A stretch of 64,000 nucleotides of DNA. Origin: an archaeon (lineage in GTDB: Archaea; Nanobdellota; Nanobdellia; Pacearchaeales; GW2011-AR1). This document shows positions 54,067-58,639 of the stretch, piece after piece; within the stretch, counting starts at the first letter, position 1, and every line of letters begins with the position of its first letter. Both the position numbers and the translations under genes were made by a program. The notes below the pieces were generated by a model. It had not been told where the DNA came from. It did not search any database and was given only the letters and a program-made list of their open reading frames with translations. The stretch covers positions 14,799-78,798 of the forward strand of contig JBDRCH010000005.1 in assembly GCA_043821945.1 (NCBI GenBank), written 5' to 3'.

Positions 54067-54129
54067 AAAAATATATCACATTTGCAATTTAATAATGTTT
54101 CTAAAGAATTTGCTCTGCTAATTTAACGG

Positions 54130-54402
54130 GTGTTAATCGGTAGATTTTTAAGTAACATTTTATTTTATATAATTATGAATAAAGAGCTCCCTATAAAATC
54201 TTGGAGATGGATTTTTTATATTCTTGGTTGGATTTTTGGAGCATTAAATCTTGTGTTTTGGGCTTGGCAATATTTAATGTATATGGGAGATGAAAAAAGT
54301 GACAAATTTATTTCTAATCAATTCCATAAGAGAGTATATTATTGGGGGGTTTTATTTACAGCGATAATCTTAATAACAATTATTTTTGTGTTGATAGATT
54401 AA
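54130..54402 (+). CDS. Small membrane protein (90 aa)
   Basis: two hydrophobic helices. Confidence 0.3.
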   Translation: MLIGRFLSNILFYIIMNKELPIKSWRWIFYILGWIFGALNLVFWAWQYLMYMGDEKSDKFISNQFHKRVYYWGVLFTAIILITIIFVLID

Positions 54403-55279
54403 TCAATTCCAACCATTTATTATCAGAATTTAATTTTAAGTCAGTTGCTAATTCATAAGGGCATCTTTTAAGAGTTTGATGTTTAGTTATGAAATTGTAA
54501 TAAACTGCATAACCTTTCATAATACTATTTACACTCTCTACACTTCCGTGTAATCCTCTGAAAGTTTTTGTTCTGTGTCTTATTTTATTATGTAACCTTT
54601 CTATTAAAATATTAAAACCTTCACCTTTAGAAGCATTTACTTGATTATGCTCTACTCCGAAATATTTGTTTTTACTTTTTAATCCAAAAGTTTTTCTTAT
54701 TGCATTTTCATAAGTTAAAAGTCCGTCAGTAGTTACGACTTTAATCTGTTTTTCTGTTTTCTCTTTCGCTTTCATTAGAACAGATTTTATCTCATCTTTC
54801 CCTCTTGACTTACAAAATTCAGAAGCTACCATAAAACGAGTTTTAGTATCTATACTATCAATAAACCAATTTTCTTCTTTTCCACCTTTAATATCCTTTC
54901 TTCGTGAATATTGCATTTCATCTATTTGTAATTCACTTCCTGTTTGAAGTTTAAGTTTATCTGTGAAATTACTAATTTGATTTGAATACTTTACAACCCA
55001 TTTATAGATTGTAACATCTGAACTATTATGGGGGTAAAAAGCCCTTAGATGTTCTCTTATTTTTCTTGTGCTTACTCCTCTAAAAAATAAGTCAAGACAT
55101 AAAGTAATCTTTTGAGGATTATTTCTCATTCTCTTGAAGCCGTCATTCAAAACAAATCTGTGAGAACATTCCTTACATTTGTATCTTTGAATTAATCCTC
55201 TGTTCTCTGTCTTTCGTTTGCCGTCTTTCTTGATTAATCTTGACTGACATTTTGAGCATATTATTTCTTTGTTTTTCAT
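54380..55279 (-). mobile_element. IS1/IS1595-like DDE transposase with an N-terminal zinc finger (probable start at MKNKEII; the listed ORF's first 24 codons translate the upstream repeat)
   Basis: CSKCQS...YKCKECSHRF finger; LQIDEMQYSRRKD...WFIDSIDTKTRFMVA...VVTTDGLLTYENA DDE pattern. Confidence 0.6.
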
Positions 55280-55308
55280 ATTATAATTAGGCACCCGAAC
55301 TATATAAA
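55275..55308. repeat. 34-nt promoter-like repeat, copy 1 (ATAATTAGGCACCCGAACTATATAAATGTATCGG), 29/34 identical to copy 2
   Basis: lies immediately upstream of the transposase start on the coding strand; contains TTTATATA about 21 nt before the ATG. Confidence 0.65.
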
Positions 55309-55404
55309 TGTATCGGTACCCGAATATATTTATATTATTATATATAATCATATAGTTTCAGAAAAATAGGAAAGGTTTATATATGTTATCATATATGATA
55401 ATAT

Positions 55405-56001
55405 ATGAGTAATAATGATAATACACTTTTCTGTTATAGATGTTATCACCTTTGGAAAAAAAGGAAATCTGTTGCCCCAAAATATTGCCCTAAGTGTAAA
55501 AGTCCTTATTGGAATAGACCAAGAAGAAAAGTAAAAAAAGATATAGTATTAAAAATGGAAGAAATGATTATAAAAATTCACGATAGAATAATTGAATTAA
55601 GTGGTGGGGAAAAGGGTGTCAGAGAAGAAGGTGGAATATACAACTCTACATTTAAATTAATTAACCATCAATATAAAAATCAAAGAAATCCTATTAAAAT
55701 AGGAGCATTTGCTCTGAATGAGTTTGCTAAAAGACATTATTTTGTTGATGGAAATAAAAGAACAGCTTACGCAATCTCTAAAATATTTATGTTAATTAAT
55801 AGATGTCATTTGATGATAGATTATGGTGAGGCAACAAATTTTATGCTTAAAGTTGCAGAGCACAAAAGCAAAGTTACTTATGATGATATAAAAATTTGGC
55901 TTACAAAATATTGTAAAATTATAGATAGAAAAGATGTGGAAAATTATTTAAACAAAGCATTCGTAAATGTAACATTAGGGAGTGGAGAAAATGGCGAATA
56001 A
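55405..56001 (+). CDS. Fic/Doc-family protein (Doc-like toxin) with an N-terminal zinc-ribbon fusion
   Basis: HYFVDGNKRTA (HxFx(D/E)GNxR Fic/Doc motif); N-terminal CYRC...CPKC. Confidence 0.65.
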   Translation: MSNNDNTLFCYRCYHLWKKRKSVAPKYCPKCKSPYWNRPRRKVKKDIVLKMEEMIIKIHDRIIELSGGEKGVREEGGIYNSTFKLINHQYKNQRNPIKIGAFALNEFAKRHYFVDGNKRTAYAISKIFMLINRCHLMIDYGEATNFMLKVAEHKSKVTYDDIKIWLTKYCKIIDRKDVENYLNKAFVNVTLGSGENGE

Positions 56002-56155
56002 AAAATCAAAGGATAAAGATAAATATAAGCTTACTATAAAAGAAACTTATGTGATTTCTAAAAATGATAAGAAATTATTAGAACTCGTGAAAGTTGCTAA
56101 AGAAATAGTATTTAAAGAAGATGAAATTTTGTTTAAAGAGTTAGCGAAGCATTAA
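55991..56155 (+). CDS. Small Lys-rich ORF (54 aa) overlapping the Doc gene end by 11 nt
   Basis: ORF only; read by hand. Confidence 0.2.
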   Translation: MANKKSKDKDKYKLTIKETYVISKNDKKLLELVKVAKEIVFKEDEILFKELAKH

Positions 56156-56301
56156 GAACAAATGAAAAATCAAGAACAAATTTCTATAGAAGAAAAAGAA
56201 TTACCCGAACTCAAAAAATTCCTAAAATCAAAAAACAAAAAGATTTCAAAAATAATCAAATTAAACAAAAATAGTTTAAGAGTTTTTGTTGGAGATTAAA
56301 T

Positions 56302-56460
56302 TTATTCTTTTTCAATAACAATCTTTTTGCCTTCAAGTTTGACATTAACTTCTTTGTCTTTCAATCCTGAATCTTCAACAACCTGCTTCGGCAAATTAAT
56401 TCTATATTTAATATAAGTTGTATCTCCTACTTTTTTATCAATAACTTTCATTATTTTCAT
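56302..56460 (-). CDS. AbrB/MazE-like swapped-hairpin small protein (52 aa), antitoxin-like
   Basis: MKIMKVIDKKVGDTTYIKYRINLPKQVVEDSGLKDKEVNVKLEGKKIVIEKE resembles AbrB/MazE; read by hand. Confidence 0.45.
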   Translation of the reverse strand: MKIMKVIDKKVGDTTYIKYRINLPKQVVEDSGLKDKEVNVKLEGKKIVIEKE

Positions 56461-56463
56461 AAA

Positions 56464-56497
56464 ATAATTAGGAACCCGAACTATTTAAACATTTCGG
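56464..56497. repeat. 34-nt promoter-like repeat, copy 2 (ATAATTAGGAACCCGAACTATTTAAACATTTCGG) immediately upstream of the AbrB-like gene
   Basis: 3-nt gap to the ATG on the coding strand; internal CCCGAA...TTCGGG inverted repeat. Confidence 0.65.
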
Positions 56498-56590
56498 GTG
56501 CTGAAAATAAATAGCCGACATCTTTAAATAAGACATCGGCTTTTCAATTCTGCGAGGAATTGAATATGATATTTGAAATAATTTTCTTAT

Positions 56591-56800
56591 TTATTTTAGT
56601 TTCTTCTTTGGTTTAGCAATAAAATTTTTTCTTGAAGATGATACTGGAATAGTAATATCTCTTATTTGTTTGATAGTTTTCGTTTTATGTTTTTTGATTA
56701 TATCCCTAATAATCTTACAAGCAACACAAGAATGGTTATGCCAAAAAGTCCCAGTATTATTCCAATGCCAGTCATAAATCCCATTAGATAAAACACACAT
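56591..56800 (-). CDS. Small Cys/His-containing hypothetical protein
   Basis: ORF only. Confidence 0.2.
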   Translation of the reverse strand: MCVLSNGIYDWHWNNTGTFWHNHSCVACKIIRDIIKKHKTKTIKQIRDITIPVSSSRKNFIAKPKKKLK

Positions 56801-56863
56801 ACTTCATTTATTTTATTTTTCATCTTAAAACTCCCTCTAAGTTAGCAGAGTATAAAGAATTAA

Positions 56864-58489: not shown

Positions 58490-58639
58490 ATGACAGAAGG
58501 ATATTGCGTGAAATGTAAAAAAAAGGTTGAGATAAAAGGCCCTGTTGAAAGCAAAACAAAAAAAGGAACAAAAATCGCAAAAGGGAAATGCCCAGATTGT
58601 TCAACAACTGTTTGCAGAATGGGCGGAATAACAAAATAA
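58490..58639 (+). CDS. Small zinc-ribbon protein (49 aa) with a GGAG ribosome-binding site
   Basis: CVKCKKK...CPDCSTTVC; AGGAG 9 nt upstream of the ATG. Confidence 0.4.
   Translation: MTEGYCVKCKKKVEIKGPVESKTKKGTKIAKGKCPDCSTTVCRMGGITK

Follow-up and report, generated by a model that had tools for sequence, protein, structure and literature searches.

A probable cargo-carrying transposon of DPANN archaea with a zinc-ribbon-Doc gene, a candidate antitoxin gene and an AbrB-like gene

We analysed a window of 64,000 nucleotides (nt) from an archaeon of the Pacearchaeales (GW2011-AR1; assembly GCA_043821945.1, contig JBDRCH010000005.1, positions 14,799 to 78,798 of the forward strand). The window is this whole stretch of DNA, and the positions below are counted from its first letter unless a related locus is named. 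The subject of this work is a unit in which four neighbouring genes encode a DDE transposase, a Doc toxin domain with an N-terminal zinc ribbon, a protein of 54 amino acids (aa) and a small protein of the AbrB/MazE type. A preliminary description had flagged 54380-56503 as a small mobile island. The genes named in it are all present at those positions, and their homologs (172 for Doc, 89 for the 54-aa open reading frame (ORF) and more than 1,300 for the transposase) rule out chance ORFs. Furthermore, terminal inverted repeats (TIRs) and a target-site duplication (TSD) were found around them, and because of these we regard the island as mobile. Its borders had to be moved outwards, since the true span is 54111-56852. 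The features of the unit are the following:

54102-54110: left copy of the TSD, TAAAGAATT, with an identical 9-mer at 56853-56861; its offset from the TIR core is the same as in 20 other elements
54111-56852: whole element, 2,742 bp, bounded by the TIRs and a 9-bp TSD
54111-54134, + strand: left TIR, TGCTCTGCTAATTTAACGGGTGTT; the same motif family ends the related elements
54380-55279, - strand: DDE transposase, 299 aa, with an N-terminal C4 zinc finger and an IS6/IS240-like catalytic core
55280-55328, - strand: transposase promoter, with a TATA-like box between two palindromic sites of the TT[C/A]GG-N3-CCGAA type
55331-55401, + strand: Doc promoter region, with an AT-rich palindrome-like site at 55331-55354 and a TATA-like box TTTATATA at 55376-55383
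55405-56001, + strand: zinc-ribbon-Doc fusion, 198 aa (ribbon at aa 10-36, then a basic linker, Doc domain at aa ~45-190)
55991-56155, + strand: 54-aa partner of Doc, candidate antitoxin, with the C-terminus ...KEDEILFKELAKH and a predicted single helix at aa 24-53
56302-56460, - strand: SpoVT/AbrB/MazE-like protein, 52 aa
56461-56509, - strand: promoter of the AbrB-like gene, an imperfect palindrome of ~31 nt with the TATA-like box TTTAAATA at its centre; a duplicate of the transposase promoter
56829-56852, - strand: right TIR, reverse complement TACTCTGCTAACTTAGAGGGAGTT, identical to the left TIR at 19 of 24 positions
56853-56861: right copy of the TSD, TAAAGAATT

The ends were located by means of 80 metagenomic loci that encode relatives of the transposase, in which the homology between close copies breaks off at a conserved motif of ~20 nt. 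In the window, the TIR pattern CTGCTAAYTTARMGGGDGTT occurs exactly twice (chance expectation 0), at 54115-54134 (+) and 56829-56848 (-), that is, in inverted orientation. Each end consists of this core motif and 4 outer bases, ~24 bp in total, and the 9-bp direct repeat that lies directly outside is perfect. The element was inserted into a short spacer that follows the stop of a gene for a 175-aa membrane protein and precedes the start of a gene for a 519-aa secreted protein. TIRs abutting the transposase gene were also considered (54330-54430 against 55280-55404 or 56455-56600) and were rejected, since no inverted repeat above the shuffle level appeared either in the window or in L025, its closest relative by synteny.

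Among the relatives, the end motif takes forms such as TTGTTACCTTAAAGGGTGTT, TGGTGCATTAAAGGTTGG and CTGCTAACTTAAAGGGAGTT, and in many of the compared loci it is present once forward and once reverse around the transposase gene. Counting the one in the window, we obtained 21 distinct elements with a perfect 9-bp TSD and an inverted-repeat identity of at least 15/20, and all of them have a common geometry of 9-bp duplication, 4 outer bases and core motif. Pairs of low identity with one mismatch, given by the same script, served as a view of the noise level. The duplications of the relatives include TGTTGAACG in L025, AAGTTATAG in L086 and CCTTACAAT in L090, and further examples are L110, L123, L133 and L167.

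These other insertions, at least 20, come from DPANN archaeal genomes and metagenomes and measure 2.2-5.8 kb, apart from one transposase-less element of 1.8 kb, and the homologs of the element genes are almost all from DPANN (Pacearchaeota, Woesearchaeota, Nanoarchaeota and Aenigmatarchaeota). Viral contigs gave one relative of the transposase only, so the family is not notably viral. The sister elements that encode a transposase measure 1.8-5.8 kb and share nothing beyond the ends, the transposase and one small gene. Their cargo is mostly restriction-modification (R-M) and comprises D12 and N6_N4 methyltransferases, MjaI and HNH nucleases, a type IIG fusion, an archaeal ATPase and, in L086, a 451-aa Fic protein. 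Between the window and L025, the homology is confined to the four core genes (54383-~56511), and both the cargo and the flanks differ. The same ends and transposase are found at different genomic sites, with varying passenger genes.

The element at L014 3427-5255 is 1.83 kb long and has no transposase, although it has the TIRs of the family and a perfect 9-bp duplication, TAAACTCCT; it contains a ribbon-Doc gene, the partner gene and one 96-aa ORF of no assigned function, and it looks like a non-autonomous derivative. At L086 1503-6195 the same frame of transposase and AbrB-like genes surrounds, in place of Doc, the 451-aa protein, which is a winged helix-turn-helix-Fic protein with the canonical AMPylase motif HPFNDGNGR. 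An additional pair of genes, one for an AbrB-like protein of 54 aa and one for a protein of 80 aa, lies there downstream of the transposase gene, behind the palindrome TAGTCTAGAC.

Regarding the transposase, its ORF extends over 54380-55351 (-), and by alignment with its relatives the real start is the ATG at 55279. The catalytic residues D120, D185, E227 and R234 are invariant among these relatives. The transposase is highly conserved (60-88% identity). It had been described as IS1/IS1595-like, and this is right for the N-terminal finger, which matches NF050000 (IS1/IS1595 Zn) with 29.4 bits, above the cutoff of 28, but not for the catalytic core, which is closest to IS6/IS240. Pfam DDE_Tnp_IS240 gives 32.1 bits, above its cutoff of 27, and the NCBIfam IS6 equivalog is aligned end to end over its profile with 87.8 bits, below its cutoff of 125. 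The IS1 equivalog model stays at 54.5 bits, under a cutoff of 100.

IS6 elements are ~0.8 kb long, with 14-bp inverted repeats, 8-bp duplications and one passenger-carrying member only, and some of them have an extra N-terminal zinc finger (PMC7986276). The present element is like IS6/IS26 in its DDE(K/R) core, which is the best match, in its single-ORF transposase and in the zinc finger. However, an element that encodes a transposase is here 1.8-5.8 kb long and has TIRs of ~24 bp, the window and 20 relatives show a 9-bp duplication, and cargo is carried as a rule. Because of these differences in length, repeats, duplication and passengers we did not place it in IS6. In IS1, a 9-bp duplication is typical and the small zinc-finger protein InsA binds the ends, and the IS1/IS1595 members that ISfinder calls 'tIS' carry passenger genes. 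The likeness on this side includes the N-terminal Zn domain, the 9-bp duplication, a small zinc-finger protein beside the transposase that recalls InsA, and passenger genes as in tIS, whereas the IS1 equivalog score is below the cutoff, there is no frameshifted two-ORF transposase and the ribbon gene, which is divergent, has no detectable homology with the N-terminus of the transposase. On the strength of these comparisons, the element is treated as an IS6/IS1-related cargo transposon that would be a member of neither family.

The transposase leader of several relatives (L133, L158, L125, L138, L141, L116 and others) has a GC-rich hairpin in the last ~45 nt before the ATG, with compensatory changes and then a T-run; its variants are GGGAGCTACGAACTCCCC, GGGTGCTACTAACACCCC, GAGGGCTCCGAAGAGCCCT and GGGATTCCGAAGAATCCC. 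It is found in relatives with a long spacer between the ribbon and transposase genes and is missing in the window copy, and it may be an attenuator or a terminator restricting transposase expression.

We consider it probable that a family of DDE transposons with cargo, common in DPANN archaea, has one intact insertion at 54111-56852. Some observations count against this: the TIRs of the window agree at 19/24 positions only, there is a single copy of the element within the 64 kb, and no empty site was recovered by look-ups with the flanking 175-aa protein and P0241. The imperfect TIRs, the single copy and the high conservation of the transposase would also suit a fixed and immobile relic in which the transposase has been domesticated. 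Nevertheless, the 9-bp duplication is perfect, all the ORFs are intact, the catalytic residues are invariant and 20 or more other sites are occupied by relatives with perfect duplications, and we hold a relic to be improbable.

The window element carries the ribbon-Doc gene. The CxxC..CxxC of its N-terminal ribbon is at aa 10-31 and the Doc motif HYFVDGNKR corresponds to residues H111-R119. The protein matches Pfam Fic (E=6e-9) and TIGR01550 DOC_P1 (48.9 bits, above the cutoff of 38.65), and its 172 homologs, of ~198 aa, are 52-74% identical and belong to several DPANN phyla. In an alignment of 85 Doc sequences, H111, F113, D115-R119, the four ribbon cysteines, W17 and Y35-W36 are invariant. 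An AlphaFold2 (AF2) model, with a predicted local distance difference test score (pLDDT) of 81.5, matches the P1 Doc structures 3dd7/3k33 with a target template-modelling (TM) score of 0.82-0.85 and a root-mean-square deviation (rmsd) of 2.1-2.4. The earlier reading as a Doc/Fic protein with an intact HxFxDGNKR is borne out, and the predicted fold is that of Doc. PADLOC matched Doc alone, to the candidate family PDC-M59B, and recognised no known defence system. In the public annotation the Doc gene of the window is a protein of 148 aa (P0013, 'Fic family protein [archaeon]') that covers 75% of the ORF and is 100% identical; this annotation is consistent with an internal Met start that omits the zinc ribbon and, if so, the fusion is thereby hidden.

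The 54-aa ORF that overlaps the Doc stop by 11 nt had been pointed out before, and it turned out to be a real, conserved and tightly coupled gene in a genuine toxin-first order. In 38 distinct loci, a homolog of it lies directly downstream of Doc with the same orientation, and in 35 of the 38 it overlaps the Doc stop. The 89 database members of the family are all annotated as 'hypothetical' and none has a Pfam domain; their identity is 69-93% and the C-terminus ...KEDxxLFKELAK[HY] is nearly invariant. AF2 predicts one long helix at residues 24-53 (pLDDT 89-97). The partner gene is also found downstream of Doc relatives without the ribbon and therefore the pairing is with the Doc domain, the ribbon having been added later. 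We looked for a Phd-like, ribbon-helix-helix (RHH) or other known fold in the partner and rejected them, since there was no Pfam, PDB or hhalign signal (the hhalign probability for Phd was 0.05%).

The best reading of this anatomy and conservation is that Doc and the 54-aa protein form a toxin-first pair similar to type II toxin-antitoxin (TA) systems, in which the 54-aa protein would be a new helix-only antitoxin; that it is an antitoxin at all is likely. Like type II TA systems in general, the pair consists of two small, co-oriented and translationally coupled genes that stay together in different lineages and contexts (the 38 loci). In comparison with phd-doc of phage P1, the Doc fold and motif are shared, as is a small partner, encoded next to the toxin, whose C-terminal part is helical. 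However, the partner is here downstream and not upstream (the upstream gene is the divergent transposase), it has no Phd/YefM domain and no predicted DNA-binding fold, and the toxin has an extra ribbon.

Two points speak against the TA reading, namely that the partner resembles neither Phd nor any known antitoxin or solved structure in Pfam, PDB and hhalign, and that Doc is more conserved than would be expected of a typical toxin, which could point to a housekeeping or regulatory function. Actually, Doc and its partner might be a kinase and an inhibitor that make up a conserved cellular translation regulator of DPANN archaea, only occasionally captured by a transposon. The unusual conservation of both proteins agrees with this, and so does the genomic context: most copies have no transposase and are surrounded by housekeeping genes such as those for AsnRS (asparaginyl-tRNA synthetase), exosome and CPSF (cleavage and polyadenylation specificity factor) proteins. 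But the neighbourhood of Doc varies between lineages instead of being kept, the module is inside TIR/TSD-bounded elements in the window, L025 and L014 and beside a decayed transposase in L005; this fits a horizontal spread that would explain the high identity too. We regard a cellular regulator as rather unlikely. At L005/L017 3770-3925 the decayed transposase is a fragment (aa 35-83) upstream of an intact set of ribbon-Doc, partner and AbrB-like genes, and the Doc promoter region is duplicated beside it; the module outlives the transposase.

The zinc ribbon had been noted as unusual, but it is no oddity of this one protein, since it is invariant in more than 80 Doc homologs and a stand-alone ribbon gene accompanies most of the related transposases. 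This gene encodes ~46 aa and is located 90-250 nt upstream of the transposase gene, in divergent orientation, in most of the transposase loci with enough upstream sequence among the 80 metagenomic ones; often it is directly inside one TIR or at the head of a methyltransferase operon. One stand-alone ribbon has the sequence MKKEIKVYECKCERCKHEWITRTEEAPIVCPKCKSPYWDKPLNNKK, and another example is the following:

L090 3272-3412: stand-alone ribbon gene, with the candidate sites TTACTATAGTAA

The stand-alone ribbon aligns without gaps with the Doc N-termini, as C-x2-C-x-H-x-W-x9-10-P-x2-CP-x-CKSPYW followed by a basic tail. The ribbon is thus a core module of the element, and possibly a regulator. 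The main reason to think of a small regulator is that an AbrB-like gene occupies exactly the slot of the ribbon gene in L103, L153, L154 and L157. Furthermore, there are palindromes beside the TATA box at the promoters of the ribbon genes. A test of operator pairs by k-mers shared between ribbon/transposase intergenic regions gave a weak signal (mean 7.8 against 6.4 in the control), which TATA boxes confound. Apart from the element, ~1.6 kb outside it, an ORF of 49 aa at 58490-58639 (+) has a CxxC...CxxC pattern (MTEGYCVKCKKKVEIKG...CPDCSTTVCRMGG) and would encode another tiny zinc-ribbon protein.

A perfect 16-nt palindrome and candidate operator, TTATCATATATGATAA, is found at 55386-55401, between the TATA-like box and the ATG of Doc, and ends 3 nt before the ATG. 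Because of this palindrome, and because the partner is predicted to be a bare helix, it is plausible that the ribbon replaces the DNA-binding part of an antitoxin. Going further, we put forward with reserve, as a possibility that we would not call probable, that the CxxCxHxW...CPxCKSPYW ribbon is a sequence-specific DNA-binding regulator of minimal size (~35 residues) and of a kind not recognised before. A new family of DPANN transposons would have it as signature controller, in charge of both the cargo operons and the divergent transposase promoter. Through the fusion with Doc, the toxin itself would become the subunit that binds the operator, while the bare-helix antitoxin would only mask the active site. 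If this is true, the toxin rather than the antitoxin binds the operator, a division of labour opposite to that of canonical type II TA systems. It must be set against this idea that the ribbon is in no curated family, that profile searches, including PDB, match generic ribbons only, some of them ribosome-associated and RNA-binding, and that RNA or protein binding by the ribbon is equally possible.

The ribbon might also be a transposition cofactor that binds the TIRs, the transposase or the target DNA, in which case the fusion with Doc would tie the activity or localisation of the toxin to the transposition machinery. No other gene accompanies the transposase as constantly as the stand-alone ribbon gene, which is always divergent from it, its frequent position just inside a TIR would be suitable for this, and IS1, with its end-binding InsA, is a precedent. 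Nevertheless, we judged the ribbon as an InsA-like copy of the transposase finger unconvincing (hhalign probability 20% over 18 columns), genes of AbrB-like regulators can take its position and most ribbon-Doc loci show no transposase in their vicinity. We give such a cofactor little probability.

Regarding the AbrB-like protein, Pfam MazE_antitoxin (PF04014) scores 18.7 bits on the window protein, below the cutoff of 24.7; 6 of 10 family members match it (best E=3.5e-6), and the top PDB profile matches are MazE/PemI (E=0.04-0.06). Over 56 nt, the stretch with the promoter and first codons of its gene (56454-56509) has 79% identity with the corresponding part of the transposase gene (55273-55328), and the core of this repeat, TTAGGNACCCGAACTAT, is present within the window in those two places only. 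Both promoters are imperfect palindromes centred on the TATA-like box, with sites of the TT[C/A]GG-N3-CCGAA type on either side (55287-55326 and 56468-56507). The duplication is kept in L025 and L086, and the promoters of all the AbrB-like homologs carry such sites. The 56-nt direct repeat was also considered as the ends of an insertion sequence or as att sites, and this was rejected because the start codons and TATA boxes of both genes lie within the repeat, which is a duplicated promoter.

The preliminary description had proposed the AbrB-like protein as a candidate to neutralise Doc. The gene is, however, absent from most Doc loci (~30 ribbon-Doc loci have the partner without it), it accompanies other cargo (a different Fic protein in L086 and R-M in L154 and L173), and its promoter and operator are common to the transposase. 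For these reasons, a repressor of itself and of the transposase is the more likely role. One detail does not favour this role: the upstream arm of the 'operator' overlaps a possible archaeal BRE (transcription factor B recognition element; CGAAA) ahead of the TATA box. A three-component system, with the AbrB-like protein as DNA-binding antitoxin or regulator of Doc and the 54-aa helix as an accessory or adaptor, could appeal to AbrB/MazE-like proteins being classical antitoxin DNA-binding modules, as the PF04014 matches recall, and to the adjacent, convergent gene in the window, L005/L017, L025 and L029, but it is very unlikely given those ~30 loci and the other cargo, an operator copied onto the transposase promoter and not onto that of Doc, and a length of only 52 aa without a C-terminal toxin-binding extension.

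The mechanism that we propose can be put as follows. The transposase, with its Zn finger and IS6-like core, would recognise the TIRs and insert the unit through staggered cuts 9 bp apart. Ribbon-Doc and the overlapping 54-aa helical protein would form a toxin-first TA pair. P1 Doc phosphorylates elongation factor, and the Doc of the element, with the kinase-type Fic motif HxFxDGNKR, would block translation in a similar way; the helix of the 54-aa protein would bind and neutralise it. Such a pair may stabilise the element or serve as a defence of the abortive-infection type, like the R-M cargo of the sisters. The ribbon, homologous to the ~46-aa gene that heads the cargo operon divergent from the transposase, would be the domain of a small nucleic-acid-binding regulator, and in the fusion with Doc it would contribute the operator binding (at the palindrome TTATCATATATGATAA of the Doc promoter) that the helix-only partner is missing. 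Finally, the AbrB-like protein would repress its own promoter and the nearly identical one of the transposase through the TTCGG-N3-CCGAA sites flanking the TATA boxes, which would keep transposition low. With regard to toxicity, neutralisation, DNA binding and transposition alike, this mechanism is an inference.

There are three other ORFs inside the element:

54130-54402, + strand: hydrophobic ORF of 90 aa (75 aa from the ATG at 54175), between the left TIR and the stop of the transposase gene; either variable cargo or a spurious ORF
56162-56299, + strand: ORF of 45 aa in a window-specific spacer; probably no gene
56591-56800, - strand: Cys/His-rich ORF of 69 aa, between the promoter of the AbrB-like gene and the right TIR; either variable cargo or a spurious ORF

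They were discarded as conserved genes of the element, since none of them has homologs in any fetched related locus; the 45-aa ORF also has no family, and the stretch that contains it is missing in L025, where the partner stop abuts the stop of the AbrB-like gene. Between the 69-aa ORF and the AbrB-like promoter, at 56515-56547, there is a hairpin AGCCGA...TCGGCT with a T-run, which is terminator-like on either strand.

Regarding comparable systems, TA pairs are embedded next to the transposition genes in Tn3-family transposons, where they have been proposed to aid stable invasion or maintenance (Lima-Mendez et al. 2020, PMC7157771). This is the nearest described analogy, as here too a TA-type pair is inside a transposon, by the promoter region of a transposition gene. 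The differences are in the transposase superfamily, the archaeal host, the Doc toxin and its toxin-first order, the fused ribbon, the AbrB-type control and the lack of a resolvase. A small regulator gene at the head of a selfish or defence operon is also known, by analogy only, from the controller (C) proteins of R-M systems and from omega. In omega-epsilon-zeta the antitoxin itself has no DNA binding, and the C proteins and omega are of the helix-turn-helix (HTH) or RHH type, unlike the candidate regulators here, one of which is a C4 zinc ribbon and the other an AbrB-like protein. The searchable literature gave no description of this element family, nor of ISMhu11. Thus, the archaeal transposon family and the toxin-first layout appear to be undescribed, although cargo transposons and Doc toxins as such are known kinds.

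DPANN archaea have tiny genomes and a poorly described mobilome. The present element points to a group of small transposons, with defined ends and a duplication rule, that carry defence-type cargo (R-M, Fic/Doc) between them, and this helps to annotate many 'hypothetical' genes. It also exposes a widespread variant of Doc with a new candidate antitoxin family (...LFKELAKH) and a reversed gene order, and it offers a clear case of a transposase promoter shared with the gene of an AbrB-like regulator. Furthermore, the tiny zinc-ribbon module may be a new kind of archaeal regulator.

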